From assembly GCA_028286605.1 (NCBI GenBank), contig JAQBRE010000002.1, forward strand, positions 60,219 through 124,218: 64,000 nucleotides of DNA, given 5' to 3'. Under the pieces are notes generated by a model. The model ran no database searches. It had not been told where the DNA came from and worked only from the letters and a program-made list of their open reading frames with translations. Shown here piece by piece: positions 33,577 through 49,500 of this stretch. The stretch comes from Parcubacteria group bacterium. GTDB lineage: Bacteria > Patescibacteriota > Minisyncoccia > Phycocordibacterales > Phycocordibacteraceae. Position numbers and translations under genes: made by a program. Positions within the stretch are counted from its first letter, which is position 1. Every line of letters begins with the position of its first letter.

Positions 33577-33816
33577 AAATGCTTATTATTAGGGGTGTGG
33601 ATACTGGGGAAAGAGCATTATCTCTAGTATATACGGTCTGGAATGGGTGTGCTCGTTATTCGGAAGCTGTGGGTACAGGCGTATAAGTCGGGTGTATAAA
33701 CGGGTGCTGGATTTTCTTCCCGAAGTTATCAGTCTTCTCTACCCTGCTTGTCCCCATCCTTGCTACCCCTGTTATCTCCAGCTTCTCCACATCTTTTCCC
33801 CAGAACTTATTCACAC
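33577..33816. promoter_or_regulatory. dnaA-dnaN intergenic region with several DnaA-box-like 9-mers (candidate oriC component)
   Basis: TGTGGATAC at 33596-33604, TTATCTCCA at 33772-33780, TTATTCACA at 33807-33815. Confidence 0.45.
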
Positions 33817-35169
33817 TCAAACAAGCAGAGTGCGAATGTCCTGAATCTCTTTCGCGAGTTCTGCATCCTCTGCGACTTCGCGCTTCACCTTTTCACATGA
33901 GTGAATGACAGTGGTGTGGTCACGTCCACCAAGCTTATTGCCGATAGTCGGATACGAGACGCTGAAGTCTTCACGAAGGATATACATGATCACTTGGCGA
34001 GGACGCACCACTTCCCTTCTACGGGTCTTCTCATAGATACTTTCCTCCTCGATGCCGTAGAACTCAGCAATTTTCGATACGACATGTTTAACCGATACTG
34101 TTTTGGAAGGACGAGAGAACGAACGGAGCGATTGTCGAACTTCAGCGATGTCTGGCGGCGTACCTTTTACCTGCGTATGGCAAACAACCGAGTTAAGAAC
34201 ACCCTCCAATTCACGGATAGAACCTGAAACAGAAGTAGCGATGTACTCAGACACCTCATCAGAGAGCATTACGCCGCTCATAGCAGCCTTCTTGCGTACG
34301 ATCTCGATACGAGACTCCATATCCGGCTCACCGATGTCTACGGTCATACCAGAAAGGAAACGGCCACGAAGGCGATCCATGATGTCAGGAATGTTTCCAG
34401 GTGCGCGGTCCGAGGAGAATACGATTTGCTTGTTGTTGTCGTACAGATGATTGAAAAGATGGAAGAGTTCCTCCTGGAATTTATCCTTCTTCGAAAGAAA
34501 CTGGACATCGTCCATAATCAGGAGGTCATACTGGCGATACTTTTCCTTAAAACGGTTCGCCGTACCGAGTTGAAGCGAGTCGGTGAAGTCCGTACCGAAC
34601 TTCTCGCTCGTTAGATAGAAGACTTTTCGGTTCGGATAGAGCTTCTTGTAGTGATTCCCTATCGCCTGAATGAGGTGCGTCTTTCCACGACCGGTATCTC
34701 CGTAGATAAAGAGAGGGTTGTACGTGATTCCAGGGCGCTCGATAGCCGCGCGAGCCGCCATATTGGCCACTTGGTTGAACGAACCGACGACGAACGTATC
34801 AAAGGTGTAGCGCGGGTTGAGATTGTCGCTCTTATTGATGTAAAACTCGTTGAGCGGGAGCTCCTGAGTAGGTTCGCGGCGCAGCCGCGACTCTTTGGGC
34901 TGCTTGCGCGCGATATCTTTTACGATCGTGTACTCGATATTCCTGAATTCGACAGAAACATCACGAACGATCTTCAAAAGGAGCGTGTTGAAATGCTTCT
35001 GATACCAATCCTTGAAGAACGGGCTCTGTACGCCGATGAAAACGATGCCGTCTTCGATCTTTATGATGGCGCTGGACTTGAACCACGTGTTGAAATTGGC
35101 AGGAGAGATAGAAAGTTCAACCTGCGTGAGGATGTATTCCCAAAGTTCATGCGGATCAGAACGGTTCAT
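33817..35169 (-). CDS. dnaA: Chromosomal replication initiator protein DnaA
   Basis: Walker A GDTGRGKTHL, AAA+ sensor motifs and a C-terminal DNA-binding domain (...VSYPTIGNKLGGRDHTTVIHSCEKV...). Confidence 0.95.
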   Translation of the reverse strand: MNRSDPHELWEYILTQVELSISPANFNTWFKSSAIIKIEDGIVFIGVQSPFFKDWYQKHFNTLLLKIVRDVSVEFRNIEYTIVKDIARKQPKESRLRREPTQELPLNEFYINKSDNLNPRYTFDTFVVGSFNQVANMAARAAIERPGITYNPLFIYGDTGRGKTHLIQAIGNHYKKLYPNRKVFYLTSEKFGTDFTDSLQLGTANRFKEKYRQYDLLIMDDVQFLSKKDKFQEELFHLFNHLYDNNKQIVFSSDRAPGNIPDIMDRLRGRFLSGMTVDIGEPDMESRIEIVRKKAAMSGVMLSDEVSEYIATSVSGSIRELEGVLNSVVCHTQVKGTPPDIAEVRQSLRSFSRPSKTVSVKHVVSKIAEFYGIEEESIYEKTRRREVVRPRQVIMYILREDFSVSYPTIGNKLGGRDHTTVIHSCEKVKREVAEDAELAKEIQDIRTLLV

Positions 35170-35274
35170 GCGGTCATTGTATCTCTGCCTGTGGATAACT
35201 CCAATAATTATGAAGATAGGCCGTTTTGTTGCATGCCAGAGCGCAACCTGTTAGTATCCTGTGTATAACTTCCT
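35170..35274. promoter_or_regulatory. Divergent dnaA / rpmH promoter region containing a perfect DnaA box
   Basis: TGTGGATAA at 35190-35198 and TGTGTATAA at 35259-35267, between divergent dnaA and rpmH. Confidence 0.5.
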
Positions 35275-35427
35275 ATGCCAAAGCGCACCTACCAGCCGAA
35301 GAAGCGTAAGCGCGCACGAACCCACGGATTCCGTGCTCGTTCCGCTACCCCCACCGGACGCCGCGTATTGCTCGCTCGTCGCCGTAAAGGCCGTGCAAGC
35401 CTCACGGTTTCTAAGAAAGTACGCTAA
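35275..35427 (+). CDS. rpmH: 50S ribosomal protein L34
   Basis: [50 protein letters not shown], a 50-aa ORF below the track cutoff. The track ORF 35261..35467 is in the wrong frame. Confidence 0.85.
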
Positions 35428-35756
35428 TGCTACCTCGCTCGCACCGCCTCCCTCGGGCCGGTTTTGAGCAGATTGCCGGCCTCAAGCGTTCCGCTAGCCG
35501 GCATTTTTCTATATCCTATATAGATAGCGCTCCGCTGGCCGGTGGCGCGGTGGTAGTGTCCAAAAAGGCTGCAAAACAGTCAGTGGACCGTCATCTCCTG
35601 AAGCGCCGCGTAAAGGCTGTGATGAAGCCGTGGTTGGTTTCAGGGCGGGTGCTGATAGTCCATGCTCGCACAGGTGCAATAACTCTTCCCTTTTCCGAAC
35701 TAGAGGCCGAACTGACGGCACTCTTACGACAATCGTTCGATTCCGGTACTATATAA
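35427..35756 (+). CDS. rnpA: Ribonuclease P protein component
   Basis: ATG overlaps the rpmH stop (TAATG). Basic 109-aa protein ...VVVSKKAAKQSVDRHLLKRRVK... in the classic rpmH-rnpA-yidC order. Confidence 0.85.
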   Translation: MLPRSHRLPRAGFEQIAGLKRSASRHFSISYIDSAPLAGGAVVVSKKAAKQSVDRHLLKRRVKAVMKPWLVSGRVLIVHARTGAITLPFSELEAELTALLRQSFDSGTI

Positions 35757-35759
35757 CCC

Positions 35760-36488
35760 ATGATCGGCCACTTCTTCACCATCGTTCTCTACGCTCCTAT
35801 CTATAACCTCCTGATATTCCTCGTGGATATCCTTCCAGGTGGCGATATCGGCCTTGCCGTCATCATCGTTACTATCATCGTGAAGCTGGTTATCGCGCCA
35901 CTCACTATCTCTGCACTCCGTACCTCGCGTGCGATGCAGGCAATACAGCCTAAGTTCAAGGAACTACAGGAAAAATACAAGGATGATAAGGAATTGCAGG
36001 CGAAAGAGACCTTCGCGCTCTATAAGAAATACAAGATAAACCCGTTCGCGAGCATTCTGACGTTATTTATTCAGCTTCCAGTAATCATTGCGCTGTACTA
36101 CGTGTTCCGTCACGAGGTCGTTAAATTCGACCCTACGATTCTGTACTCATTCGTGCATGTACCGGCCGTAATCTCTAATAACTTCCTCGGTTTCTTCCCC
36201 CTTACGGCACATAACATAATCCTTGCTGCGCTCGCCGCAATAACGCAGTTCCTGCAGGCTAAATATGCGATGCCCGTACCGCCTTCAACGGGCCCCGACG
36301 CATCTGCGAGCGAGCAATTCAATCGCACTATGGCGATGCAGATGCGCTACATGCTTCCGCTATTCATCGGATTCATCGCGTATATTTCTTCAGGCGCTAT
36401 CGCGCTGTATTTCATAACGACCGCACTATTCACGCTCGGTCAGGAACTTTTCATGCGAAAGCTGCCCAAGGTTGTCGTTGAAGACTAA
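35760..36488 (+). CDS. yidC: Membrane protein insertase YidC/Oxa1 (short form)
   Basis: 242 aa, multi-TM, conserved hydrophilic-groove region, directly after rnpA. Confidence 0.85.
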   Translation: MIGHFFTIVLYAPIYNLLIFLVDILPGGDIGLAVIIVTIIVKLVIAPLTISALRTSRAMQAIQPKFKELQEKYKDDKELQAKETFALYKKYKINPFASILTLFIQLPVIIALYYVFRHEVVKFDPTILYSFVHVPAVISNNFLGFFPLTAHNIILAALAAITQFLQAKYAMPVPPSTGPDASASEQFNRTMAMQMRYMLPLFIGFIAYISSGAIALYFITTALFTLGQELFMRKLPKVVVED

Positions 36489-37696
36489 AGGTCGTACTCC
36501 CAAAGCGAACCAGTCTTCTTGTCTGTAAATACCAAGACATCTTCCTTCGGATCGACGGTCAGTGAAACCGCATCGATAGAAGTCTTCGCAACAGCAGTAG
36601 GGTCAACGATGAGCGTTGCAACGCGTGCAGTCATGTCGATGCGCCAGATACGGTCAGTGAAGGACACGGCACCCTGATACCAGTCGTCTGGAAGATTTCC
36701 TGAACCAAGATCCGTCGGTACGCCGCAGTACACCGTTACTTCGTCTGCCCAAACGCACTTTTCTGTAAGAGTGGCAAGCGGAAGCGCTGTTGCAGAATGA
36801 GTCGCAATATTTATAACTGCCAGATGCACGACACCGCCATCTACATAGCTATAGAGGAGTGATTTTCCAGACGGGCTCGGTAGAAGCGTGAGGCCAGCAA
36901 GAGGCCCGAGTATTCGCGTGAATGAATTTCCATTGATTTGGAACCCGTACCCGAACGTCGCACTCGATGCTTTCGTATGTGCAAAATAGGTATTCCCTGC
37001 CGGATATACGATGAGCGAAGAAACGAGCGAAGTGAAAAGCGTGCGAGGGCTTGAGCCATCGATTTTAGAAACCGTTCCCACCGAACCGCTCGTGCTCGTA
37101 AGTAATGTAAATAGTCCAGTTGAGCTGGCGACACGTGCCTCAGCAAGATCCTGCTCAAGGAAATATCCACCGTTTCCATCTGAAGGAAGCGCATAGGTTG
37201 CGACATGTTCGCCATCAGTCGCGTTCGTCGTGATGAACTGCACATATGCCATAGAACCGTTCGGAACCCATGATGCCACCTGAATACCTGGCAGTGTTTT
37301 GTTAGAGCGGCGCGTAAGCGTACGGGCATGTGCGATGTAGCTGTAGATATTGCCGCTAGCGCGATCTATGAAACGCACGTCTACGTCTGGTGTGGTCGGC
37401 GTACTGCTACTTGTCGTTGCGCCATTCGTCGGTATCGCGATATTTACATCTACCGCAGCAACACCTTCAGCGACAGGGCCATCGGTAATCTTTACGAAGT
37501 TCGGCGCAACGATGGTGCCAGCACCTTGGCCCTCTGTAAGGCCACCCGGAGTCGTCGTACTGCTTCCCGCATTAGCAAATGGATTACCAACCGTAAGCGT
37601 CCCCGCCTTCGGCGCAAAGAATAAGTAATACGCACCGATCGCCAGCCCGATGATGACGATGATTGCTGCAACAATGATAAGGATTCGACGCATCAT
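36485..37696 (-). CDS. Membrane-anchored extracytoplasmic protein, last gene of the T4SS-like operon
   Basis: N-terminal TM (ILIIVAAIIVIIGLAIGAYYLFF), then a 370-aa Thr/Ser-rich beta-type domain. Confidence 0.5.
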   Translation of the reverse strand: MMRRILIIVAAIIVIIGLAIGAYYLFFAPKAGTLTVGNPFANAGSSTTTPGGLTEGQGAGTIVAPNFVKITDGPVAEGVAAVDVNIAIPTNGATTSSSTPTTPDVDVRFIDRASGNIYSYIAHARTLTRRSNKTLPGIQVASWVPNGSMAYVQFITTNATDGEHVATYALPSDGNGGYFLEQDLAEARVASSTGLFTLLTSTSGSVGTVSKIDGSSPRTLFTSLVSSLIVYPAGNTYFAHTKASSATFGYGFQINGNSFTRILGPLAGLTLLPSPSGKSLLYSYVDGGVVHLAVINIATHSATALPLATLTEKCVWADEVTVYCGVPTDLGSGNLPDDWYQGAVSFTDRIWRIDMTARVATLIVDPTAVAKTSIDAVSLTVDPKEDVLVFTDKKTGSLWEYDL

Positions 37697-37699
37697 ATG

Positions 37700-38410
37700 T
37701 TAATTCTTACCGCAGCACTGATACCCAACGACCTGACCAAGAGCTGGGTTAGCGTTACAGCATGATTGAGGAATTACTCCTTCTCCGGAGGGGCACATCG
37801 TTGTGGTTGGAGAATTGGTAATAGTTTTATACTGACACTGATTCTGATTCTGCGTAGAAGAGATACACGTGCTATTGCTGCAGACATCAGTACCAGTACA
37901 CGCTGGCGAACAGCTCGACATGCCATATACGCCACCTGTCTTGTCTGCGTTCGGTACTGTTGAACCGTTCGTAAGAGGCGTAACTTGAACATCACCCCCT
38001 GTACCGTTTTTGCTCTGCAGGCCTGTAAAATTAAGGCTTATATTAAGAATCTTCGGATTGATGACGCTGAATACCACGAACGGAGAGAGCACCAGTACAA
38101 GACCAAGAATCGCATTCATGATCTTTGCACGCGCTTTCGTATTTTTGGAAACGCTGTCCGCACTGCCCATAAAGATGAAGCCTGCCCAAATTATCTGAGC
38201 AATAGCGAAGAACGCAGCAAGACCGATGCTGATGCGATACAGGTTGTTTATGAAAGATGGTAACGATATGGCATTTGCCGCAACCGTAGAAAGGCCGGGA
38301 AGCTGCGTAAGCGGTACGAACTGGTCGTCGGCGAATGCGAGAAGTGGTATTGAAATCGCGACACCGCTTGCGACGAATGCTGCTGCAGTTATAAGGGTGG
38401 AACGTTTCAT
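37700..38410 (-). CDS. Candidate VirB2/TrbC-like pilin with a Cys-rich C-terminal extension
   Basis: Signal peptide, then two closely spaced hydrophobic helices (ISIGLAAFFAIAQIIWAGFIFMG and IMNAILGLVLVLSPFVVFSVI) as in T4SS pilins, then a Gly/Thr/Cys-rich tail (about 14 Cys). Confidence 0.4.
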   Translation of the reverse strand: MKRSTLITAAAFVASGVAISIPLLAFADDQFVPLTQLPGLSTVAANAISLPSFINNLYRISIGLAAFFAIAQIIWAGFIFMGSADSVSKNTKARAKIMNAILGLVLVLSPFVVFSVINPKILNISLNFTGLQSKNGTGGDVQVTPLTNGSTVPNADKTGGVYGMSSCSPACTGTDVCSNSTCISSTQNQNQCQYKTITNSPTTTMCPSGEGVIPQSCCNANPALGQVVGYQCCGKN

Positions 38411-38413
38411 ACT

Positions 38414-39427
38414 CTATAGACCAAATATACCAAGAGATTTCTTCGCGCCGAACTGAACGGTCATGGAAGTATCTCCGAGCTGGCTAGTATCTGACTGTTT
38501 TGCTTCGAAACCGACTACTGCCGTTCCGGAACCTGCGCCGTTTGAACGAACGGTAATATCCTGCCCTGCCTGACTCGCCACATCATTAACCGTCCAGGTG
38601 AGTGACGGTGAACCGGTGAAGTAATAAGGCACGCCACGGAAGGTATCCTCTGCATCGCTCATAGCGATGGTATCTGGAAGCGCATAGTTGAATAGAGGAC
38701 CAAGGAGCGGATCATTCTGATAGATGCGCACGATAGGGCTTACCGGCGATATGAAAGCAGACGCCTGTGCAACGCCGCTGCTGTCAGGGGTAGCAACCGT
38801 TACGGTAATCGTTGCGTTGCGGTACTGCACGGGAGCTGTCGCAGTGAGTACGGATTTTCCGATGCCTGAATCACTTTCAAGAATCTGGTCACCGTTTTTC
38901 CACGTATACACAAGGCTTGAAGCAGGAACAAGCGCTCCTGATGCGGTGCGCAGGTTTGGTAATGCGACGAGCCGTACAAGGCCTCCAGAGGCCACAAGTG
39001 ATGCTCCGTGATAAAACGGATGCGATGTAGAAACAGGCTCTACGATAAGCGCCACATCAGCGGGGCGAATAACAAGGCTCTGGCTATAAGTCTTTCCATC
39101 GCTGGTAACTGCCACAACTTTGATCGTACTTGCGACGCCCGCGGCACCTGCTTGTACCTGTACGGGCGCTGAGCCACTTCCCTTCTGTATGACTGTTCCA
39201 TTCACAGAAATAGTCACCTGACTTGAAGAAAGGTCGATAAGCGTGCTATCAGGCGTTACGGTAACCGCTTGATAGGGTGCTGGGTACTGTGGGTCGATGG
39301 AAACAGTAAGTGGGTCTGTACCAGCTGGTACTTGCTGAGCGAATACAGGATGAGCGCCTGTAAGAAGGAGTAGGGCTGCAAAGACGAAACCAGCTTTCAT
39401 TGTGTACAGTATAGCGCGTTTGCGCAT
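38414..39427 (-). CDS. Secreted beta-rich protein (Ig-like repeats), T4SS-associated
   Basis: Signal peptide AGFVFAALLLLTGAHPVFA. Repetitive V/T/S-rich beta pattern. Confidence 0.5.
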   Translation of the reverse strand: MRKRAILYTMKAGFVFAALLLLTGAHPVFAQQVPAGTDPLTVSIDPQYPAPYQAVTVTPDSTLIDLSSSQVTISVNGTVIQKGSGSAPVQVQAGAAGVASTIKVVAVTSDGKTYSQSLVIRPADVALIVEPVSTSHPFYHGASLVASGGLVRLVALPNLRTASGALVPASSLVYTWKNGDQILESDSGIGKSVLTATAPVQYRNATITVTVATPDSSGVAQASAFISPVSPIVRIYQNDPLLGPLFNYALPDTIAMSDAEDTFRGVPYYFTGSPSLTWTVNDVASQAGQDITVRSNGAGSGTAVVGFEAKQSDTSQLGDTSMTVQFGAKKSLGIFGL

Positions 39428-39435
39428 GCCACTGC

Positions 39436-39837
39436 TTATGCGGCTCGGGATAGAGGTGGCCTGCGAACGTTATCATTTGCTGCTTTTGCTGCCGATTCCT
39501 TTTCTTCTCCCTTCGCGTCTTGGTCCAGAAGATAGTATGTGGTTCCGAGCTGTATGGTGAGTGCTGGTATAAAATCATCAAGCCCAGGAGCTACATTAAC
39601 AACGCCGTTGACAATAACATTGGCCATTTTCTGCGCAGATCTTTTCCCTCCTATATATTTTGGTCCTACACGAATGAAGAAATAAAGATTCAAAGAAATC
39701 AGACCGAACATCTTTAACGGCCAGCCAAGAAGATCAATGCCAGGTATCCAGCAGATGGCCATGCACGCAAGATCAATCGCAGCCGTGAACATATACAGGA
39801 ACATCTTTTCGATCGAATCGATTTTCCCTGAATCCAT
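39436..39837 (-). CDS. Small polytopic membrane protein, T4SS-associated
   Basis: 133 aa with three hydrophobic segments, immediately downstream of the VirB4 ATPase gene. Confidence 0.5.
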   Translation of the reverse strand: MDSGKIDSIEKMFLYMFTAAIDLACMAICWIPGIDLLGWPLKMFGLISLNLYFFIRVGPKYIGGKRSAQKMANVIVNGVVNVAPGLDDFIPALTIQLGTTYYLLDQDAKGEEKESAAKAANDNVRRPPLSRAA

Positions 39838-39843
39838 AGCGGT

Positions 39844-41667
39844 CTATGCTGAGCCTGCTGCGTCCTGACGCATCTTTTCCTGTTGTATCTGCAGAAGCTG
39901 CGACGGATCGGAGGTGATTATCTGATCTTCTGTATACGAAGCGACTATCTTGATAGCGGCGTGTTTCAAACCGGCGAAGAAGAGGCCCTCCCCCACTCCT
40001 GATTCAAGCAGGAGGTATTTTTCTTCATCAGTAAGACCGAATGTTTCCTGAAGAACGTCCACTGTTGTCGGCGATTGCTTAAGCAGCAGCTGCATCGAAG
40101 AGTTCGTAAGGATCGGACGACCATACGGGCTGCGAAGGAAGTCCTCCACGTCCTGTGTGATAGTGGCGAGACCAAGGAAGTACTTACGACCACGCTTCGC
40201 CAAACTGAATAGAAACGAGGCTGTGTCTTCAGACTTCATCATCCACCACGCCTCATCAATAATGAGCAGGCGTTTCTTCAGTTCATGCCGTACGGAATTC
40301 CATATATAGTGCGTAACGATATACATCGCGACCGGCTTGAGCTCGTCCTCCATGTCACGCACAGAGAACACGACGAACTGATTATTGATATCAACGTTTG
40401 TTGGCTGGTTCAGGAAGCCTGCCCATGTGCCCTTCGTGTATTTCGAAAGACGCTGCACGAGCGAGGTGGAACCCTCCATGCCCGAAAGAACACTTTCGAA
40501 ATCGGAAAGAAGCGGTGGTTCTACGCCGGTGAAATCCGTATCGCCGCTAATATCTTTCAGCGCGTAGGTTTCAGAGATCGCGCGGTCTATGATTGCGTCC
40601 TCTTCCGGCGTGAGGCCGCCGAGCATGATACGGAACAAGCCCACGAGGTTGATGATCGTGCTGCGCAGGATATCTGCAGGGTTTTCGTCCTCACGCACCG
40701 GCGGAAGATCAAATGGATTAATGTGGTTCTCGCTTGAAAGCGAAATATTGAACATCTTGCCGCCGGTTGCCTGTGCAAGGTATTCATATTCACGTTCAGG
40801 ATCGATAACGATAACTTCCGTATCAAACATGAGCGAACGAAGGATTTCCAGTTTCACTGCGTAGGACTTTCCAGAACCAGACTTCGCGAAGACCACGGAG
40901 TTGTAGTTCTCAAGAGAGAAGCGATCAAAGAGGATCAGCGATGCATTGTGACGGTTAATGCCATACAGGATGCCGCGATCACTTGAAAGGTCGAACGAAA
41001 CGAATGGGAAGATGCTAGAAAGCGGGGATGAATTGAGCTTGTTCGTAACGGCGAGCTCATCTATAGCGAGCGGTAGCGTTGAACGGAAGCCTTGTTCCTG
41101 CTGGAACAGTGCGGGTTTCGTATACACGAGCTTTGAATCAAGGATGCCGCGCAAGTCCCCCTCTACCTTGTCTAGCTCTTCTTTCGTAGACGCATACATA
41201 GTGATGTACAGGCCAACTTCGAACAGTTTTTCCTGCGCCTGTTGCAGATTATCGCGCAACGTTTCAAGGTCTTGATATGCCGTATCAAGCATGGGGTCAC
41301 GAACGAGGCCGCGCCCTTCTCGCTCTGCTATCTGGCTCTGTACCTCAGCCACTTTCTTCTGGAAATTACGCAAAGCGTCGGCCGTGTCGATTGGATTAAC
41401 GAATATAGATACGTCGAAGACCTTATCCAGGTTGATGATAGGTGTGAACCAGCCGTCTGAAAGGAATCGAGGATAGGAGATCGTATAAAAGGAACGGGCT
41501 ACCTTCTCACCAAGCTCTATCTCACGTGAGCTCACCTTGAGCGCCGCAGGCGCGATGGTGTCCGCCAGATCAAGCGTACCCTGCGCGTAAATATCTTTCG
41601 GCAGCACTGGCGCAACGACGGGTGCGTCTTCTTTTTTGCCACGGTTTAGGAAGTCGAGAAGTGCCAT
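39844..41667 (-). CDS. VirB4/TraE-type T4SS ATPase (body: region with YPRF...DGWF motif plus ATPase domain)
   Basis: ...SFYTISYPRFLSDGWFTPIINLD...ILYGINRHNASLILFD...VFAKSGSGKSYAVK (Walker A)...LLIIDEAWWMM (Walker B). Layout is typical of Gram-positive-type VirB4. Confidence 0.85.
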   Translation of the reverse strand: MALLDFLNRGKKEDAPVVAPVLPKDIYAQGTLDLADTIAPAALKVSSREIELGEKVARSFYTISYPRFLSDGWFTPIINLDKVFDVSIFVNPIDTADALRNFQKKVAEVQSQIAEREGRGLVRDPMLDTAYQDLETLRDNLQQAQEKLFEVGLYITMYASTKEELDKVEGDLRGILDSKLVYTKPALFQQEQGFRSTLPLAIDELAVTNKLNSSPLSSIFPFVSFDLSSDRGILYGINRHNASLILFDRFSLENYNSVVFAKSGSGKSYAVKLEILRSLMFDTEVIVIDPEREYEYLAQATGGKMFNISLSSENHINPFDLPPVREDENPADILRSTIINLVGLFRIMLGGLTPEEDAIIDRAISETYALKDISGDTDFTGVEPPLLSDFESVLSGMEGSTSLVQRLSKYTKGTWAGFLNQPTNVDINNQFVVFSVRDMEDELKPVAMYIVTHYIWNSVRHELKKRLLIIDEAWWMMKSEDTASFLFSLAKRGRKYFLGLATITQDVEDFLRSPYGRPILTNSSMQLLLKQSPTTVDVLQETFGLTDEEKYLLLESGVGEGLFFAGLKHAAIKIVASYTEDQIITSDPSQLLQIQQEKMRQDAAGSA

Positions 41668-41670
41668 AAA

Positions 41671-42306
41671 TTATGCAGTGAATGAAATAGGGTTTTCCAT
41701 CTCGCCCAAATTGAAGGAACGGTACAGGAGCTCGATGATCTCTTCGGTACCGAGTGGCACAGCACGCAGCCCTGCACTTCCGAGCCCTCCTGCCACCAGC
41801 GCCATACGCTGCTCGAGCTGCACGCGGCTCTCTTCAAAACTCACGTCGACACCCGGTGCTGCAGCAACCGAACTCTTTCCTATTCCCGCAAAGGCACCCT
41901 TAACCGAAACGGCTGCACTGTTCGTTGAATACGGAACCACGATATAGAACGTCTTCGTCATAATGTCCGACCCCTCGATGAAATTACGGATGAACTGAAT
42001 GTATTCACGAAGCTGAATACGCATAAGTTCGCTGGTCTGATGCTCGAGCCGTTCACTCAGCAAGTTCAGATACGGACGAATATCCGTCTTGCGCGAATGG
42101 ATGACGATCTGCACCGTGAAATCGAGCGTATTAAGGAAATTCTGGAACCCGCCGATGATCGCCTTCTGTTCGTCTTCCGATTTCAGCGCGAAGTTAAGCG
42201 AAGAACACATCATGATGCCGCGATAACCGCCCTCCTTAAGGATAACGACACCGTTCCGAACTTCGGAAACCGGTACGAATGCTTGGGTTGGTTTTGGTGT
42301 AGCCAT
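41671..42306 (-). CDS. VirB4 N-terminal region encoded as a separate ORF, in frame with and 3 nt from the downstream ATPase ORF
   Basis: ...VPVSEVRNGVVILKEGGYRGIMMCSSLNFALKSEDEQKAIIGGFQNFLNTLDFTVQIVIHSRKTDIRPYL... resembles the extreme N-terminus of long (about 800-aa) Gram-positive VirB4 proteins. Ends with TAA 41671-41673, followed by TTT and the ATG of the next ORF in the same frame. Confidence 0.6.
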   Translation of the reverse strand: MATPKPTQAFVPVSEVRNGVVILKEGGYRGIMMCSSLNFALKSEDEQKAIIGGFQNFLNTLDFTVQIVIHSRKTDIRPYLNLLSERLEHQTSELMRIQLREYIQFIRNFIEGSDIMTKTFYIVVPYSTNSAAVSVKGAFAGIGKSSVAAAPGVDVSFEESRVQLEQRMALVAGGLGSAGLRAVPLGTEEIIELLYRSFNLGEMENPISFTA

Positions 42307-42307
42307 A

Positions 42308-42724
42308 TTAAAGGGTTTCGGGCGGTTTGGTGTGATCCTGAATATCCAGGGACCATGCAAGATCCTTCAGTTTTCCTTGTGAAAGGCCCAGTTTCTCACG
42401 AACGGGCGCAACAGTAGCCTGAACGATGGCAGGAGTCTCTGATTTCTGCTCTTTTTTCCAAAGATAGAGGCGTCCTCCTGTGTAGTAGATGAAACCTGCT
42501 TCAAGAATATCAAGGAAACTCTTGTTGTTTACCTTATAGAATGCAAGCGCTAATGCGAGGCCCATAATTGGTACGGAAAGCGCTGCGCCGATGATGAATG
42601 GAAGATAGAGAATGAGACCGACGCACATACCGACACCGCCTGCCAGGAATACGAATTGGCGCAGCGTAAGCGGGCCGAATATTTTATTCTCTACTTCGAT
42701 GAACTGAGGAACCTGATACTCCAT
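42308..42724 (-). CDS. PrgI-family (VirB3-like) small T4SS membrane protein
   Basis: MEYQVPQFIEVENKIFGPLTLRQFVFLAGGVGMCVGLILYLP... matches the PrgI-family start (M.Y.VPk...e.kifg.lT.RQ) and two-TM topology. Sits directly upstream of VirB4, as in Gram-positive T4SS. Confidence 0.6.
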   Translation of the reverse strand: MEYQVPQFIEVENKIFGPLTLRQFVFLAGGVGMCVGLILYLPFIIGAALSVPIMGLALALAFYKVNNKSFLDILEAGFIYYTGGRLYLWKKEQKSETPAIVQATVAPVREKLGLSQGKLKDLAWSLDIQDHTKPPETL

Positions 42725-42771
42725 TGCTACGAGTATACCAGTTCGTTGCGCATGCTTCCTTACTCTTGAAC

Positions 42772-43650
42772 TTATTCTGGAGCCTCGCGATACGGATCCA
42801 TGCCGTATTCCTTCACAATTGGCACTGCAGGCGTGTTCGGCGTACTAAATGAAGATGACTGACCGGGAAGATTCGACGGAATCGGCACAGAAGCAGCGCG
42901 TGGCTGATAGGGCGGGATTACTGCGGGCGGAACGAACGCAGGTGCAATCGGCGCGGCAATCGGCATTGGTGGTGCAGGCGGCAAAACAGCGGTAGGAAGA
43001 GTAAATGGAACGCCCGTATTCGGTACGGATGATGTTTGGAATGAGCGTGCGGGCGAGGATGGCTGCCAGGTCGGTTGCGCAGTACGGATCGTCGTCGTTT
43101 CCTGCGGTGCATGAGGATGCTTGGCCATTTCTTTAGCAAGTTCCATATCGTGCACCATAGTACGGATTACCGGTTGTGCCGCAACCGGTGCTACAGGAAT
43201 ACTGGTGGGTGGTGGAGCGAAGGGGGCAGGAGCCGCTGGCGCGAATACCTGCATTGGCGGTGCAACTGGTCGTGCTGGCGCAGGAATAGGGGTACTGGCA
43301 AGAACTGGTGTCACAGAATCCGTACTCTGTTCCTCGTGTTGTAGCTGCTTGAAGACGCGCTCATTCACATCTGTCGTGAGTCCGCGTACCGCAGCATCAG
43401 GAATACCTGCATCACGCAGCTCCTGCACGAACTCATCCGGTGTATACACACCCAACAACATATATAGGTATGAGCGTTCGAACACTCCCGCCTGATCAAT
43501 GCGCAACAAGTATTTTGCACCTAGTTCCGCCGCTACAGCGTCACGCTGAGGACTACGTAGAAAATCTTGCAATGGTTGTGGCAACTCTTGCATCAACACG
43601 GCCATCTGCTCCGCTAAGGTTAGCTCTTCAGGAATCTGATTCTCATCCAT
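42772..43650 (-). CDS. Proline-rich hypothetical protein, T4SS-associated
   Basis: Start moved to MDENQIPEEL (ATG 43648-43650) to avoid overlap with the upstream gene. The C-terminal half is PAxP-rich. Confidence 0.45.
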   Translation of the reverse strand: MDENQIPEELTLAEQMAVLMQELPQPLQDFLRSPQRDAVAAELGAKYLLRIDQAGVFERSYLYMLLGVYTPDEFVQELRDAGIPDAAVRGLTTDVNERVFKQLQHEEQSTDSVTPVLASTPIPAPARPVAPPMQVFAPAAPAPFAPPPTSIPVAPVAAQPVIRTMVHDMELAKEMAKHPHAPQETTTIRTAQPTWQPSSPARSFQTSSVPNTGVPFTLPTAVLPPAPPMPIAAPIAPAFVPPAVIPPYQPRAASVPIPSNLPGQSSSFSTPNTPAVPIVKEYGMDPYREAPE

Positions 43651-43690
43651 TACTGTAGTATCGCTCCTAATGTACATTATTTCCACTGAA

Positions 43691-46036
43691 CTACGCAGCT
43701 GGAGGTGGAGCATCTTCTTCTTTTTGGGCATCTATTGCCTCACTAAGCTTATCGGAAATTTCAGCTTCCTTTGCATTGCCATCACTAATTGCTTTACCCA
43801 AATCCTTAAAAAGGCTTTCAGATTTTGTTTGCTTTAGGCTCCTCTTAATTGCATTTGATGCCTCTCTTTCTGGACGACCAGTGAGGAATCCTGGAACAAA
43901 TGTACGGGCTTTCGAAAGATTATCAGCATATCTTCCCTGACGACTGCTTAGCAATATTTTTCTATCCAGAGCATCTGAATCAACCTTGTATTTCCTCTCT
44001 TCAGCAACTTGCTTGTCGGTAATTTCCTGTAGATCGTTGCTGTATTTGTCAGCGGTTGCAAGATACTCTGCGCGTGATGTCTTGAGTTTGTCTGCATTAC
44101 TTACTAGGGTAGACTTCTGTGCGGTTAGCGCATTTATCTTGGTGCTTGAGATCAATGTTTCCTGTGTTTGGCCTTGTCTGAACAATTCATCATGATTAGC
44201 TGTTTCAGCAGCTATCTCGTTAGTAAGGCGGACATACTCTGGATCCTCTTCACCCGATGCGACCTTCTTTTCAAGATCAGAAATTGAATTCGCATAAGAA
44301 TTTCTGGCATTAACGAGAGAGTCTCTCTTATTCTTACTGTCTGTTTGTGCTGTTTTGTGAGCAGTATCAGTGTTCTTTTTCTGCTCTTTAAGAGCTTTAG
44401 CCTCAGCATCCTCTGTTGGATTTGGTTTAATCGAGTTCGCATAGTCCGTGCGCGCCTTGATATCTTTCTTCTCAATTTCGGCATACCCGCCGGCTGCAGT
44501 TTTGCCAGGCTTACCAAGATCTATCTTTGCAGCCTTGGTAATATTTCCCGCGAACTTGGTTGCGCGAGGATCGAAGCTTGATTTCGCACCCCTATCAGCA
44601 ATCGATGCAAGCCGGCGTCCCATTTCTGTATCAGCAAGTCCTGGAGTATTGCGTATGCTGCGTCCTATAGCAGCAGACCCTGCGCCAACAGTGCGTCGTG
44701 CAACGAATGCACCGCTTCCAAACGCGACGCCGCCCGCTGTCTTTATCGCGAAGTCTGCACCCATAGCACCGAATTTCTTCGCAGCCATAAGCGCCCCAAT
44801 GAGGCCGGCAATAATAAGTAAGAACACCATGATAATTCCCATGTTGTCGGTACCCGGACCGGTCAGTGCACTCGCGAGCCCATTATTATTCGATACTGAT
44901 GAAAAGCCTTCGGTTACCTTAAGATCTATAAAAATCAGCAAGAATAAAATAGGCGCGAAGAATGCCTGATGTATAAGCGTGTTCCACCAGCCTTTCGCTA
45001 TTTTCTCGAGGGGCGGGAGTGCCATTCCAGCGAACCCTATCGGGGAAAGGACGATAAGGCCGGTAAGAACGACGGCGCGCCAGGCAAGCATAAGCGCCGC
45101 CGCTAAAAGAACAACCGTACCGACTATTGAGAACAGCGAAAGGCCGATTAGAACCAAGGCTTTGTTCGTGACCGTAACAGTACCGCCAGTCTTAAGTGCG
45201 TAGATACCAGAAAGTCCGGTTGACTCCATGATGTGTCCGGCAATACCACTATTAATATTGCAGCTAGTCGTTACGCACGGGTCGGTATTTGCCTGTGCGT
45301 ACAGCGCGGAGGTTAGAACGTTGGAAGTATCAATAATTGCTTCTGCAGCGAAGATACTGAAATTCAGAAGTATCGCGAAAATTATGAGCTTCGGTATCGC
45401 TTTCTTGTCTGCAAATTTTCCCGTATCAAGGATAATGCTGATGCCCATAAGTACGAAGCCGAACAGAAGGATCAGATTTCCGATATCGCGCAGTATTCCC
45501 CAAGCAGTAAGGAGGCCTGCAGAATTTCCTATAAGAGTTGAAAATTGGAATACCGTTTTAACTATGACCCAGTTCAGCAATGTTCCTGCAATCGCAAGAA
45601 TAAAGTTCGTGAAGGTAATGATGAATGTCGCCACGACATTCAAGATACAATCTCCTATGTTTGAGATTCCGCAGCCGGTGGTCGCCCCACCTCCTGCAGC
45701 AGGCGCAGGCGCTGCGGCCGCAGGTGTCGTTGCAGTAGGGGCGCCGCCGAATTCAGTCTGCGCAGCCGCAGCGCTTGCATCGATAGCGGCATTGCTTCCA
45801 GTGAAGTTTACGCTGCCGTCAGCGTTAGTGGGTACATCTGATGCAGACAAGTTTGATAATCCAGACGCATCAGGAAGCGTGGCAGTTACGTTTCCAATAC
45901 CAGTCGATGCCGGAGGCGTAGCTGCCGGAGGTGTTGCGGCCTGCGCATGTACAAGCGTTGGTGCGACAACAAAGAGCGCCGCGAACAGCAGCGTTCCTGT
46001 CAGAAGCGAGCGAATTCCTAGAGCGAAAGTTCTCAT
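43691..46036 (-). CDS. VirB6/TrbL-like polytopic T4SS membrane protein with a long C-terminal coiled-coil/hydrophilic domain
   Basis: Signal/TM N-terminus and at least 6 TM helices in the central 350 aa (...FIITFTNFILAIAGTLLNWVIV...). C-terminal 300 aa is K/E/A-rich and predicted helical. Confidence 0.6.
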   Translation of the reverse strand: MRTFALGIRSLLTGTLLFAALFVVAPTLVHAQAATPPAATPPASTGIGNVTATLPDASGLSNLSASDVPTNADGSVNFTGSNAAIDASAAAAQTEFGGAPTATTPAAAAPAPAAGGGATTGCGISNIGDCILNVVATFIITFTNFILAIAGTLLNWVIVKTVFQFSTLIGNSAGLLTAWGILRDIGNLILLFGFVLMGISIILDTGKFADKKAIPKLIIFAILLNFSIFAAEAIIDTSNVLTSALYAQANTDPCVTTSCNINSGIAGHIMESTGLSGIYALKTGGTVTVTNKALVLIGLSLFSIVGTVVLLAAALMLAWRAVVLTGLIVLSPIGFAGMALPPLEKIAKGWWNTLIHQAFFAPILFLLIFIDLKVTEGFSSVSNNNGLASALTGPGTDNMGIIMVFLLIIAGLIGALMAAKKFGAMGADFAIKTAGGVAFGSGAFVARRTVGAGSAAIGRSIRNTPGLADTEMGRRLASIADRGAKSSFDPRATKFAGNITKAAKIDLGKPGKTAAGGYAEIEKKDIKARTDYANSIKPNPTEDAEAKALKEQKKNTDTAHKTAQTDSKNKRDSLVNARNSYANSISDLEKKVASGEEDPEYVRLTNEIAAETANHDELFRQGQTQETLISSTKINALTAQKSTLVSNADKLKTSRAEYLATADKYSNDLQEITDKQVAEERKYKVDSDALDRKILLSSRQGRYADNLSKARTFVPGFLTGRPEREASNAIKRSLKQTKSESLFKDLGKAISDGNAKEAEISDKLSEAIDAQKEEDAPPPAA

Positions 46037-46042
46037 AGGTGG

Positions 46043-47608
46043 TTATATGCTCGTGCTGCAGAGTCCTGAAAGCGTCGTGTAGAGCGAAGTAGTGCTGCCC
46101 ACGGCGGGATTACTTTGTATTTGAGCATCAATACTATCAGTGGTCTGTATATATCCGCCTGTTGTGGTGGCAATAAGGTTCTGGTATTGCGTGGATACCG
46201 CAGCAAGTACTGAAGGATCGGTGGAAGCTGCCGCTGCGTTTGCTGCGGTGCTTATAGTGGTGAGCGCACTGACGGCAGCGTTCCCGCGAGCAATATTCGT
46301 GTTTGACAACGTCAGCGCTGCCGCAACCTTTGGATCAGAGCTTATGCAGCTCCGTGCAATTGATTGGAGTTTCTGCCAATTGGCAAGATATGCTTGCGCC
46401 GTTCCAATATCGTTCGTCACGCTTTGTACGAACCCTGCAGCAAGACCCGGCTGTGCATACTGCGAAGGGTTTGTCGCTTGAGCAAGCGGTGATAGGCCAC
46501 CACCCGCAGAAGGTTGTGAAACACCAGAGAGACCAACGGCGCCCACCACCTGAGTTACGAGCTGGCTTGCAAGCGCGCCAACGATTTCATTTATGGAATT
46601 AGCGAGCTCAAGCTGACGAAGAGGAGATGTGGCCGTTATGCCGAGCGTGTTTTCAATAACCGTACCCGGTGTTCTGATGGAGTTGGAAGTGCAGTTATCT
46701 GCGCTGCTAAGGGACGTTAGGGAGGAGGTGTCGACATTGCTGAGTGAGCCGCCACTGTAATCAACGCTGCCATCAGCGTTAGTGGGAACACTGAGAGGAC
46801 CGTTAAGTGCTGATGGGTCTGTTATTTTTGTCGTTACGGGACCTATACCAGATGAAGTTTTTGATGCGGTGGACGTACAAGAACCACGCCATGACATGAA
46901 GCCCTTTCCCCAGTTCAATTCATTCAAACGATTCGTGGTTGCTGCATAGACCGTCGCATTAAGCGCTTGCTGTTGTGAGTAGGCTGCACCATAAGGATTG
47001 TTCTGATTGTTTCCAACCGCGGCGAACCATGCATTGAAGCCGCCATTCGATGCGAATTTGCCAGCCAGGAAGCCTGCAGGATTATTGCTGAATTGGTTAA
47101 GACTATACCCGCCAGTCACTGATCTTCCGGTGGAACTGTAATACTCGTTGCGCAAACCCTGCGAGACCACATCCTGGAATGGTGACTTCACTCCCCCGCT
47201 CGTATTATTAGCAATCGCATTAAAGAAGCTATTTGCAACCCCATCGCTCACACCCAGAAGATTCTGATTAATGTTCGTTACGAATGAAGGCGAGCCGTTG
47301 AAACCAGAATTAATCCAGGTAATCATACTCTTCGTAATAGCCTGAATAACAGCTTTTGCGACGGCCCACGCAATACCGTTCAATATTTTTGTTATGACTG
47401 TTTGCGCCGTGGTATTACCTGCAGTAATACCAGCAGGGACTGCTGTAGCGCTAATGGCAGCAAGGACAGCAACATCAGTAACCGGAAGCTGCGCATGTGC
47501 GTATTCAACAGAGTCTGGAAGTATAGGAGCAAAACTCAATGTACAAACAAGCATCAAACAGCTAGCCGCAATGCCGAGACGAACGGATGTTTTTCGGTAG
47601 AGGCTCAT
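46043..47608 (-). CDS. Secreted Ala/Ser/Thr/Gly/Asn-rich protein, T4SS-associated
   Basis: Signal peptide LGIAASCLMLVCTLSFAPILP. Shares the peptide VPTNADGSV(D/N)(Y/F)(S/T)G with the adjacent VirB6-like protein. Confidence 0.55.
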   Translation of the reverse strand: MSLYRKTSVRLGIAASCLMLVCTLSFAPILPDSVEYAHAQLPVTDVAVLAAISATAVPAGITAGNTTAQTVITKILNGIAWAVAKAVIQAITKSMITWINSGFNGSPSFVTNINQNLLGVSDGVANSFFNAIANNTSGGVKSPFQDVVSQGLRNEYYSSTGRSVTGGYSLNQFSNNPAGFLAGKFASNGGFNAWFAAVGNNQNNPYGAAYSQQQALNATVYAATTNRLNELNWGKGFMSWRGSCTSTASKTSSGIGPVTTKITDPSALNGPLSVPTNADGSVDYSGGSLSNVDTSSLTSLSSADNCTSNSIRTPGTVIENTLGITATSPLRQLELANSINEIVGALASQLVTQVVGAVGLSGVSQPSAGGGLSPLAQATNPSQYAQPGLAAGFVQSVTNDIGTAQAYLANWQKLQSIARSCISSDPKVAAALTLSNTNIARGNAAVSALTTISTAANAAAASTDPSVLAAVSTQYQNLIATTTGGYIQTTDSIDAQIQSNPAVGSTTSLYTTLSGLCSTSI

Positions 47609-48627
47609 TGTGTTTGAGAAGCGCGCGCGACGCTTACGATCAGTGCGCCAGGTGTGCCTGGTGCAGGCTCTCCACCACTAGCGATGATTGCCTGCGCGAG
47701 GCTTTGAAATGTTGTGACGATAGTCTGCGATGTTGGTACGTAGAGCGAGAGTGATCCGAGAACTGCAAGCGGATCTTTACTGTAATTATTCACGGCGTTT
47801 GTTGAGCGCGCGAGCGTATCGAACGATTGCACGAGCGCGAGGTGCTGTGCGGCAAGTGCGGGCGGAACGGGCACTTGGATAAGATCTTTCGTGATTTTTG
47901 TATACGAAGCACCAAGCACGACAAGCTGCGCTTGTGCTTTCGTATCATTGTTCTGAAGGAATCCCTGCATGAGCGGTACCGGTTCAGCACTGCCCGAAGT
48001 AACATCATCCGAACGGAACACTTGTTCTATTGCTGCGGCATATCCAAGGACGGTCGCTGTTGGTGACACATGTATAGAAATGGAGGTATAGGGAGAAATA
48101 AGAAGCGCGCTCGCTTTCTTGCTGTAGCTCGCAAGAAGCTGCGTTTCTAGTGCCTGTTGCTGGGTATCGGTAAGCGCGCTGCCGTCGCCACTGGCTGCCT
48201 CAAAATCCTGCATGAACTCCTGACCGAACTGATCGGTGAGGCTGCCTGGTGCTGGGTCGGGGCCAGGAACTTCCGAACCAGCGTCAGCAGGATTTATGGG
48301 TGTGTCTTGTACGGGAGTAGGAACAGATGCAGAAGTTTTCGGCGTAACGAGACCCTTGCTTACCGCTTCGCTGTCGGTGAGCGTTGCGCTAACAGAGTGC
48401 GCATTGTTGGGATCAGTACCGTAGAGCGCTTCTTGCCAGTCCGGCAAGCCGTCGTTATCAGAATCTTTCGCTGAGTATGCTTTGAGTAGCTCATCAGTAG
48501 ATTGCGCGTTCGCGATCTTGCTTGAGAAAAACGGGACGGGCCCTGAAGAAATGTAGGCGCAGCCAACGAGCACCACTGAAAGTGCAGAGGCTGCGATGAT
48601 ACGGACCGTTCGAGAAGAAAACGCCAT
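47605..48627 (-). CDS. Putative lipoprotein (lipobox LVGC), first gene of the T4SS-like operon
   Basis: Start moved to MAFSSRTVRIIAASALSVVLVGCAY (ATG 48625-48627). Contains an acidic DxDxDG-like DSDNDGLPDWQE motif. Confidence 0.5.
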   Translation of the reverse strand: MAFSSRTVRIIAASALSVVLVGCAYISSGPVPFFSSKIANAQSTDELLKAYSAKDSDNDGLPDWQEALYGTDPNNAHSVSATLTDSEAVSKGLVTPKTSASVPTPVQDTPINPADAGSEVPGPDPAPGSLTDQFGQEFMQDFEAASGDGSALTDTQQQALETQLLASYSKKASALLISPYTSISIHVSPTATVLGYAAAIEQVFRSDDVTSGSAEPVPLMQGFLQNNDTKAQAQLVVLGASYTKITKDLIQVPVPPALAAQHLALVQSFDTLARSTNAVNNYSKDPLAVLGSLSLYVPTSQTIVTTFQSLAQAIIASGGEPAPGTPGALIVSVARASQTQ

Positions 48628-48704
48628 AATTACTAAGCAAATAGTACCATGAGCGCTGCGTGAAGCAGCGCTCAACCATATATGGTGTGTATTACTTTCG
48701 TAGC

Positions 48705-49493
48705 TTATGCGAGAAACTCCGCGAGTCTTCGCCACGTGCCAAGTGAAACGTCTTCCGGACGGATGTCTTTATTCAGTGCAGCACTCTCGAAGGCACTCGC
48801 GATACGTTCTGCAGGCGCGACGACCTCAAGATTCTTCGCCAATCGCTTTCGTTTATGGGCAAAGCCCGCACGAAGTATGGAAAAGAAGGCTTCTTCCTGG
48901 CCAGGCTTGGAAAACATGGCCGGATCGATGTCTCGGATGGCGAGAACAGCGGAATCGACGTTGGGCGCGGGGCGGAACGCCCCGCGCGGTACGGTAAAGC
49001 AGTATTCAGGCCGTCCGAAGACCTTCACGGCCAGCGAAAGCAGGCTTTCCTTCTTGCTACGGGCGATACGCTCAGCCACCTCCTTCTGAACGAGAAGTGT
49101 CATAGAGGCTGGCTTATGTGTTGCGGTAAGGAACGCGCGGATAATCTCACCGGTGATGTAGTACGGAATGTTCGCAATCAGGTGGTACTCCCCTTTTATG
49201 GTCGAAGGATCGAATTCACGAACGTCGCCATGAATGAGTTTGAGCGATCCGTTCGCGATTTCTGTGGCGAACGTCTCTTCGAGCTGCGGCGCAAGCGTGT
49301 CGTCTGCTTCTATGGCAATGACGTTTTTTACATGCGTACTCGCGAGCAGTGCGCGCGTAAGCATACCGGTACCGGGACCGATCTCGAATACGGTTGCGCC
49401 TTCGGGCAGCTTCGCTACGTCTACGATACGCTCCGCTATTTGCGGATGCATCAGGAAGTTCTGACCGAGGGATTTCTTCGCGATGAATGCCAT
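48705..49493 (-). CDS. rsmA: 16S rRNA (adenine1518/1519-N6)-dimethyltransferase RsmA/KsgA
   Basis: Start moved to MAFIAKKSLGQNFLM (ATG 49491-49493), followed by ...VFEIGPGTGMLT... SAM-binding motif. Confidence 0.85.
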   Translation of the reverse strand: MAFIAKKSLGQNFLMHPQIAERIVDVAKLPEGATVFEIGPGTGMLTRALLASTHVKNVIAIEADDTLAPQLEETFATEIANGSLKLIHGDVREFDPSTIKGEYHLIANIPYYITGEIIRAFLTATHKPASMTLLVQKEVAERIARSKKESLLSLAVKVFGRPEYCFTVPRGAFRPAPNVDSAVLAIRDIDPAMFSKPGQEEAFFSILRAGFAHKRKRLAKNLEVVAPAERIASAFESAALNKDIRPEDVSLGTWRRLAEFLA

Positions 49494-49500
49494 GACTCTA

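Follow-up and report, generated by a model that had tools for sequence, protein, structure and literature searches.

The VirB4 ATPase of a chromosomal T4SS operon in a Parcubacteria/Paceibacteria genome is, in our reading, encoded by two genes in a conserved natural arrangement, with virB4 immediately after a trsD-like gene, and we give this reading a probability of roughly 93%. Both genes lie in a stretch of 64,000 nucleotides (the window), in which a sequence-only reading had described a VirB4 gene interrupted by a single in-frame TAA and had offered three explanations: a recent nonsense mutation, a sequencing error, or a genuinely split VirB4 expressed as two polypeptides by translational coupling. 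The split is not an interruption because the closest homologues are all ∼210 aa long, 71 of 71 related genomes carry the split with varied frames and spacers, and both genes are under strong purifying selection. The same evidence supports the third explanation, while the idea of a lesion in VirB4 finds no support, the split being normal in all related genomes examined. The arrangement is ancient and is already known as the TrsD-VirB4 pair, which is widespread in patescibacterial T4SS (Quinonero-Coronel et al. 2025, Microb Genom, PMC12102498).

Layout of the two genes

The trsD-like gene (41671..42306, minus strand) and the virB4 core gene (39844..41667, minus strand) share one frame. Translation from the ATG at 42306 gives a trsD-like product of 211 aa, and the mechanical ORF list begins at an upstream TTG, giving 229 aa. 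Read directly on the minus strand, the junction runs TCA TTC ACT GCA, then TAA (41673-41671), TTT (41670-41668) and ATG (41667-41665), followed by GCA CTT; the intergenic segment (41668..41673, minus strand) is thus the trsD-like TAA and a TTT spacer abutting the virB4 ATG. This agrees with the earlier description of two ORFs in the same frame separated by TAA and TTT only, and the estimate of ∼820 aa on reading through is matched by a count of 820 codons. The statement that the ATG sits 6 nt after the stop holds if one counts from the first base of the stop, but from its last base the distance is 3 nt.

The succession of a stop, 3 nt and an ATG is also found at three further same-strand junctions in the window (35756/35760, 37696/37700, and 38410/38414). 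Shine-Dalgarno motifs are scarce, almost absent, across the genes of the 64-kb window, and the missing motif at virB4 is therefore uninformative on coupling.

The virB4 core gene

The 607-aa product of the virB4 core gene (GenBank MDB5265410.1) comprises the second half of the VirB4 N-terminal domain and the C-terminal ATPase domain. All of the motifs quoted by the sequence-only reading were found in it, namely, SYPRFLSDGWF, GINRHN, Walker A FAKSGSGKSY (with GSGKS), and Walker B LLIIDEAWW (with IIDEAW). With this P-loop and with scores above the curated cut-offs for both NF045971 CD1110 VirB4 (380 bits versus 325, profile positions 182-728) and PF19044 P-loop_TraG (89 bits versus 25.8), the protein is a VirB4-family ATPase. 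A sequence search of the PDB recovered the VirB4 C-terminal domain 4AG5 (E = 3.7e-43) and TrwK (E = 1.5e-7).

The protein lacks a complete N-terminal domain, which takes up ∼400 residues in TrwK, and begins at position 182 of the 752 positions of the CD1110 profile. It is the separate 211-aa protein that provides the absent part. The N-terminus of the VirB4 core, MALLDF(L/F), is conserved in ∼45 species.

The trsD-like gene

The trsD-like gene, which carries the Pfam name TraC-like (PF26593), is a homologue of roughly the first 200 residues of full-length VirB4. Its product, deposited in GenBank as MDB5265411.1, “hypothetical protein JWM39_124,” corresponds to the first half of the VirB4 N-terminal domain and is predicted to be soluble, with no TM segment. 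It matches positions 11-161 of the 752-position NCBIfam CD1110 VirB4 profile (E = 1.5e-6), which bears out the suggestion that this ORF resembles the extreme N-terminal region of VirB4, and positions 103-238 of the NCBIfam Mbov_0397 VirB4 profile (E = 5.9e-9). On the same CD1110 profile, the two proteins together span full-length canonical VirB4.

PF26593 is present in the precomputed annotation of P0001, a protein identical to the 211-aa protein, and of all 120 homologues listed. A scan of the 211-aa protein against our local Pfam copy, which perhaps does not include the PF26593 model, returned no family. The NF041427 (TrsD/TraD) profile gave 18.9 bits (E = 1e-3) against a curated cut-off of 200, which leaves the protein below the threshold for this narrow staphylococcal/enterococcal subfamily. 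At the C-terminus of the small protein, an ENPI motif is conserved.

Searching the PDB by sequence with the 211-aa protein gave nothing at an E value of ≤1, and TrwK was found by fold comparison only. The AF2 model of the protein (pLDDT of 84.9) has as its significant PDB matches 14 TrwK/VirB4 chains and nothing else, with E values from 2e-4 to 3.5e-3 and query-normalised TM-scores of 0.44-0.58. As modelled, the 211-aa protein is folded like the N-terminal part of VirB4.

Operon context

The pair belongs to a chromosomal T4SS gene cluster (36485..48735, minus strand) of 11 same-strand ORFs that are mostly 1-8 nt apart or overlapping. A PrgI/VirB3-like membrane protein of 138 aa with two predicted TM helices (42308..42724, minus strand; PF12666 PrgI, 36 bits versus a cut-off of 27) has its stop 1 nt ahead of the trsD-like ATG, and a homologue immediately precedes the trsD-like gene in all 69 related loci with a match. 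The same tightly packed operon encodes a VirB2-like T4SS pilin of 236 aa (37700..38410, minus strand), which scores 26.9 bits with PF18895 T4SS_pilin (cut-off, 26.6) and also matches NF045849, Mbov_0395 pilin-like (E = 3.5e-7); a pilin homologue lies downstream in 35 related loci. Judging from its topology, a 781-aa protein with ∼9 predicted TM helices (43691-46036, minus strand) may be VirB6-like.

The cluster lies between yidC (35760-36488, plus strand) and ksgA (48705-49541, minus strand), with dnaA (33817-35169, minus strand) 1.3 kb away. No relaxase or coupling-protein family from Pfam or NCBIfam was matched among the ORFs of the cluster.

The split state in related genomes

We surveyed the junction in 71 species-level representative genomes that have both genes, with small-protein identity down to 40%. 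The two are separate ORFs in every one of them. Relative frames 0, +1, and +2 occur in 31, 24, and 16 genomes, so that 40 of the 71 are out of frame, and frame 0 is not significantly in excess (chi-square p = 0.09, with genomes that are not phylogenetically independent); the in-frame layout is no more than chance. The spacers span −8 to +168 nt and include 3 nt (21 genomes), 1 nt (9 genomes), spacers of 2, 4, and 5 nt, overlaps of 1, 4, and 8 nt (overlaps in 8 genomes altogether), and lengths of at least 25 nt (11 genomes). A tight junction, 0-6 nt or overlapping, is found in 54 of the 71. The stop-NNN-ATG layout is shared by 21 of them with varied spacer triplets, and the stop codon of the small gene can be TAA, TAG, or TGA.

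These layouts bear on programmed readthrough of the TAA, by which some ribosomes would make a fused 820-aa isoform beside the two separate proteins. Frame 0 is indeed the commonest layout, with a 3-nt spacer in 21 genomes, and a fused architecture is functional in Candidatus Colwellbacteria. A fused isoform is not required, however, because the frame differs or the spacer is long in 40 of the 71 genomes, and the frame-0 excess that would speak for readthrough is the nonsignificant one given above. TAA is generally the least leaky stop codon, and it is the commonest stop here (56/71). The same stop, 3 nt, and ATG also separate unrelated neighbouring genes in the window. We consider such readthrough very unlikely.

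A recent nonsense mutation to TAA in a formerly ∼820-aa VirB4, leaving a pseudogene or a crippled gene, would fit the single frame and the bare stop plus TTT between the ORFs, as well as the fused ∼790-aa relatives in another Parcubacteria clade. Against it stand the lengths of the homologues: the 211-aa protein has 3819 homologues, of which the top 120, at 71-100% identity, all measure between 179 and 214 aa, and all but one of the best 150 cluster representatives at 50% identity fall between 115 and 443 aa. Synonymous sites are saturated (pS of 0.61-0.86, mostly 0.72-0.77), whereas the 211-aa gene has a pN of 0.08-0.17 and virB4 one of 0.05-0.10, values that indicate strong purifying selection on both genes. 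A pseudogene would show a disruption missing from its orthologues and relaxed selection; here, all 71 genomes are split, 40 of them out of frame, pN is far below pS, and the start and N-terminus of the 607-aa protein are conserved. Where copies are truly broken, at loci L079 and L080, the damage (frame changes or a deletion) falls within the N-terminal module, away from its boundary. The homologue lengths and the 71 split genomes refute the pseudogene option, and a nonsense mutation is very improbable.

A sequencing or assembly error that put a false stop into a continuous gene, conceivable in that the source is a metagenome-assembled genome, is refuted as an explanation and has a negligible chance of being right, since the independent assemblies of 71 species have the stop at the equivalent place amid diverse junction sequences, and each would need to have suffered the same error.

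The natural two-gene arrangement is what the orthologous loci show: VirB4 of ∼600 aa throughout the lineage and, beside it, an independent, conserved gene for the 211-aa protein, exactly the pattern that the sequence-only reading had named as the sign of such an arrangement. GenBank likewise has them as two separate proteins, and no result of the analysis runs counter to the two-gene reading.

Fused forms

A clade with fused ∼790-aa VirB4 exists in Candidatus Colwellbacteria. In an alignment to one of its members, the 797-aa P0254, residues 7-204 of the 211-aa protein correspond to P0254 residues 8-213, and residues 30-598 of the 607-aa protein correspond to residues 226-795. The fused form is modelled with a short linker of lower confidence at the junction (pLDDT of 53-60 over residues 211-230), and the model aligns end to end with TrwK (∼810-890 columns, E = 8e-27). 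Full-length VirB4 of the CD1110 family is comparable, with residues 38-566 of the 607-aa protein corresponding to residues 237-775 of the 816-aa protein of Enterococcus faecium pEfmO_03. The CD1110-family and Colwellbacteria proteins have the same domains in the same order as the pair described here, with a PrgI gene upstream in both, but each is one polypeptide where here there are two.

A rough NJ tree, which is only indicative, suggests that the fused Colwellbacteria clade derives from split ancestors. The chances seem about even that the split is ancestral in these Patescibacteria, as in pGO1-type and some other Bacillota systems, and that the Colwellbacteria VirB4 is a secondary fusion at the same boundary. 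In-frame stop-NNN-ATG genomes, such as this one, are a single point mutation from the fused form. If this history is true, the first half of the VirB4 N-terminal domain would be an autonomous, separately encoded module whose boundary is marked by natural fission and fusion.

Two candidate observations in the fused clade were rejected. The P0254 junction CAA-GGG-ATG (Q-G-M) was considered as a relic of TAA-NNN-ATG, a reading that finds no support: the Met is not conserved in close relatives (at this junction, L079 and L080 read GRQGTEG and GRQGDGG), and there was no close split relative to compare with. The ∼600-aa P0289 and P0385 are no clean splits, both copies being broken inside the N-terminal module.

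Comparison with known systems

TrsD has been described as a remote homologue of the VirB4 N-terminus, with 2,272 homologues in Patescibacteria, 1,664 of which adjoin virB4, and its gene is essential in S. epibionticum; such proteins were detected in that survey with the CONJScan TrsD profile (PMC12102498). The locus studied here belongs to the same phylum and has the makeup of the Patescibacteria-type chromosomal T4SS of that study, with VirB4, a TrsD homologue, PrgI/VirB3, a VirB2-like pilin, and no relaxase in the cluster. It also lies in the dnaA region, and the neighbourhood of dnaA, dnaN, rnpA, and ksgA is common to it and to the Paceibacteria T4SS of the same work. We see no substantive difference from these systems, and the locus is one more instance of them. 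No mention of junction layouts or of the fused Colwellbacteria clade was found in our reading of PMC12102498. The word TrsD is absent from the main text of Guglielmini 2014 (PMC4027160).

The order of a prgI-like gene, the 211-aa gene, and virB4 parallels that of pGO1 from Staphylococcus aureus, the MPF_FATA prototype, in which trsC (VirB3-like), trsD (227 aa), and trsE (672-aa VirB4) follow one another, with a 14-nt spacer. Residues 33-574 of the 607-aa protein align with TrsE residues 33-617 (E = 2e-36), so that residue 33 of the one is residue 33 of the other. Residues 8-200 of the 211-aa protein align colinearly with TrsD residues 35-217 over 172 columns (E = 8.3e-5, probability of 60.6%), a weak match that hhalign gave when a profile of 62 sequences was aligned to the one TrsD sequence, and the similarity of the two small proteins is very low, at 16% identity. 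By these alignments, the split point appears to be that of pGO1 TrsD/TrsE. The conjugative plasmid pGO1 has both a relaxase and a coupling protein, whereas the cluster here is chromosomal and no relaxase was detected in it. Split pairs were also seen on Bacillota plasmids of Pontibacillus and C. difficile.

TrwK/VirB4 of R388 (PDB 7O41 and 8RTD) matches the 211-aa model by fold and the ATPase core of the 607-aa protein by sequence, at a sequence identity of 13-16%; it is a single 823-aa chain from a diderm system. In R388, VirB4 dimerises through its N-terminal domain, around which the membrane anchor VirB3 wraps (PMC9259494).

Proposed assembly of VirB4

We propose that trsD-like and virB4 are co-transcribed and translated as two polypeptides. 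Termination-reinitiation coupling, with a roughly 1:1 output, would be favoured by the tight spacing seen in 54 of the 71 genomes; the conserved spacing is what suggests coupling, although 11 of the 71 have spacers of at least 25 nt. The TrsD-like protein would then dock non-covalently on the VirB4 core, completing the N-terminal domain; the PrgI/VirB3-like protein, whose gene ends 1 nt upstream, is the likely partner of this domain here. Once assembled, the ATPase would power a relaxase-less T4SS with VirB2-like pilins. A T4SS of this type is essential for the epibiotic growth of Southlakia epibionticum (Wang et al. 2023, Cell, PMC10633639).

For annotation, the pair should be neither flagged as a pseudogene nor merged into one gene, and a suitable name for the 211-aa “hypothetical protein” is TrsD-like or VirB4 N-terminal module protein. 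What is mildly new is comparative only, namely, a tight junction that is free in frame, a fused clade that is apparently derived, and broken copies that are unlike the conserved split; these points open no long-standing question. The essentiality of the T4SS for epibiotic growth is known from the one species tested, and the locus adds one more example to the published pattern in which the patescibacterial T4SS builds its VirB4 ATPase from two polypeptides.

Two adjacent genes together cover VirB4

Reading the minus strand confirmed the layout described by the sequence-only reading, that is, two open reading frames in one frame separated by TAA-TTT-ATG. The 211-aa frame runs on the minus strand from an ATG at 42306 to a stop at 41671, and the 607-aa frame follows in the same frame from 41667 to 39844, with the junction reading ...GCA TAA TTT ATG GCA... 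(TAA at 41673-41671, ATG at 41667-41665). All of the VirB4 motifs previously quoted were also found in the sequence.

The 607-aa protein matches the NCBIfam CD1110-family VirB4 profile with 380 bits (cut-off 325), restricted to positions 182-728 of 752. It also matches Pfam P-loop_TraG and, in the PDB, the C-terminal domain of Thermoanaerobacter VirB4 (E 3.7e-43) and TrwK, the VirB4 of plasmid R388; it is a VirB4-type ATPase. The 211-aa protein covers positions 11-161 of the same CD1110-family profile, matches the mycoplasma VirB4 profile's N-terminal section and shows a weak match to the 201-position TrsD/TraD profile. A PDB sequence search with this protein gave no match, and the only significant structural matches of its AlphaFold2 model (pLDDT 84.9) were 14 TrwK/VirB4 chains. 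The protein is a relative of VirB4's N-terminal part, and the suspicion that the two products jointly make up one canonical VirB4 was borne out.

The junction is a gene boundary

The TAA could in principle be a recent nonsense mutation or an assembly error in a single virB4 gene. Among 3819 homologues of the 211-aa protein, however, the best 120 (71-100% identity, from Parcubacteria/Paceibacterota MAGs) are all 179-214 aa long, and all except one of the best 150 representatives of 50%-identity clusters measure 115-443 aa. Both genes could be placed in 71 of 74 loci drawn from species-representative genomes, and they are split in all 71. Their relative frame is 0 in 31 genomes, +1 in 24 and +2 in 16, the surplus of the in-frame layout among these genomes not being significant (p = 0.09), and the first gene ends in TAA, TAG or TGA. 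Spacers of 0-6 nt occur in 46 genomes, overlaps in 8, spacers of 7-24 nt in 6 and of at least 25 nt in 11; a 3-nt spacer is found in 21/71, with ten different triplets, and a 1-nt spacer in 9/71. The VirB4 N-terminus MALLDF(L/F) and, in the 211-aa protein, an ENPI motif close to the C-terminus are kept across about 45 species. When the window genes were compared with nine relatives, synonymous sites were saturated (pS about 0.72-0.77) while pN was 0.08-0.17 in the upstream gene and 0.05-0.10 in virB4, and strong purifying selection acts on both. GenBank, too, enters the pair as two distinct proteins. Homologue lengths, the split state in 71/71 genomes, selection, conserved ends, the common junction type and the annotation together exclude both a recent nonsense mutation and an assembly error. 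The feature is thus real and was correctly described, but VirB4 is not "interrupted": the arrangement is the known, widespread two-gene form.

The T4SS (type IV secretion system) operon (36485-48735) is densely packed, its genes overlapping or lying 1-8 nt apart, and an in-frame stop, 3 nt and ATG recur at three more same-strand junctions in the window (35756/35760, plus strand; 37696/37700 and 38410/38414, minus strand). A Shine-Dalgarno-like motif at a plausible distance was seen at only 2 of 26 gene starts checked in the window (e.g., starts 39837, 41667, 42306 and 35169), so its absence before virB4 is uninformative on coupling.

Several TrsD-like homologues (P0185, P0147, P0212 and others, 280-443 aa) carry long low-complexity Pro/Gln/Ala/Thr-rich C-terminal tails beyond the conserved ∼200-aa module. 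Several MAGs titled "uncultured Gammaproteobacteria" (loci L053, L058, L063, L068, L071 and L073) carry a Patescibacteria-type TrsD-like/VirB4 pair; these pairs group with Parcubacteria and Nomurabacteria loci, and the titles may be taxonomic mislabels. In the VirB4 homologue at L063:4718-8579 (CAZPCZ010000011.1), the Walker A P-loop itself is split by an insertion of 664 aa (GAGK|SVTGDTEV...GLFVHN|SYAVKL), the removal of which restores GAGKSYAVKL. Given its Pfam matches to Intein_splicing (50 bits) and to LAGLIDADG_3 (64 bits), the insertion is an intein with a homing endonuclease.

Fused relatives and broken copies

One of the best 150 cluster representatives, the 797-aa P0254 (locus L075), is a genuine fusion and lies in the same genomic context, its residues 8-213 aligning to the 211-aa protein and 226-795 to the VirB4 core. 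Its model (pLDDT 72.6 overall, 53-60 at junction residues 211-230) aligns with TrwK along its whole length (E 8e-27). Among its best 120 homologues (59-100% identity; several carry the name Candidatus Colwellbacteria), 118 are 775-807 aa long, while the two exceptions, of ∼600 aa, are broken inside the N-terminal module through frame changes or deletion. At L079:1282-3470, residues ∼90-192 of this module are missing and the frame changes, and at L080:1362-3858 the frame changes between residues ∼147 and 179. Either these copies are real pseudogenes or the MAGs are misassembled there, and their breaks illustrate how real damage looks. Loci of the fused TraC-like+VirB4 clade (L075/P0254; P0271-P0389) have PrgI upstream and are dnaA-proximal, like the split loci. 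In a neighbor-joining tree of the VirB4 core, calculated without support values and with split Bacillota as outgroups, the fused proteins form a monophyletic group nested within split lineages, which suggests, as an indication only, that fusion is the derived state.

Known systems and genomic context

The TrsD-VirB4 arrangement has already been published. According to that survey, TrsD is remotely homologous to the N-terminus of VirB4 and is the most abundant T4SS accessory component of Patescibacteria, with 2,272 homologues, 1,664 of them adjoining virB4, and Paceibacteria T4SSs lie near dnaA, dnaN, rnpA and ksgA (PMC12102498). Similarly, the replication-origin neighborhood (dnaN, dnaA, rnpA, yidC; 32476-36488) directly borders the window cluster, and ksgA/rsmA with a UvrD-type helicase occupies the opposite flank (48705-51528). 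No clear GC-skew switch was seen at this neighborhood at 4-kb resolution. Elsewhere in the window, positions 1747-1858 (minus strand) match the Rfam LOOT RNA (RF03000) with 60.8 bits (gathering score 46.4).

The prototype Staphylococcus aureus plasmid pGO1 has the gene order trsC-trsD-trsE. The profile of the 211-aa protein is colinear with TrsD (residues 8-200 to 35-217, E 8.3e-5, probability 61%), and residue 33 of the VirB4 core aligns to residue 33 of TrsE, so the split point is common to both pairs. Split pairs also occur in Bacillota plasmids of Pontibacillus and C. difficile, and an E. faecium plasmid carries a fused form of 816 aa.

Upstream of the trsD-like gene, at a distance of 1 nt, lies a PrgI/VirB3-like gene, and a VirB2-like pilin is encoded downstream; 69/69 related loci with a match likewise have a PrgI homologue ahead of the trsD-like gene. 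The 781-aa protein encoded at 43691-46036 (minus strand) has no Pfam or NCBIfam match; with about nine predicted transmembrane helices, it is placed, by topology only, like a VirB6/PrgH-type channel subunit.

Proposed assembly

Two conserved genes provide complementary coverage of VirB4, the first product having the VirB4 N-terminal fold. The genes would be cotranscribed and probably translationally coupled, and the TrsD-like protein would join the VirB4 core noncovalently, completing its N-terminal domain. In R388, VirB4 dimerizes through this domain, around which VirB3 wraps (PMC9259494), and for this reason the PrgI/VirB3-like protein is the likely membrane partner of the completed domain.
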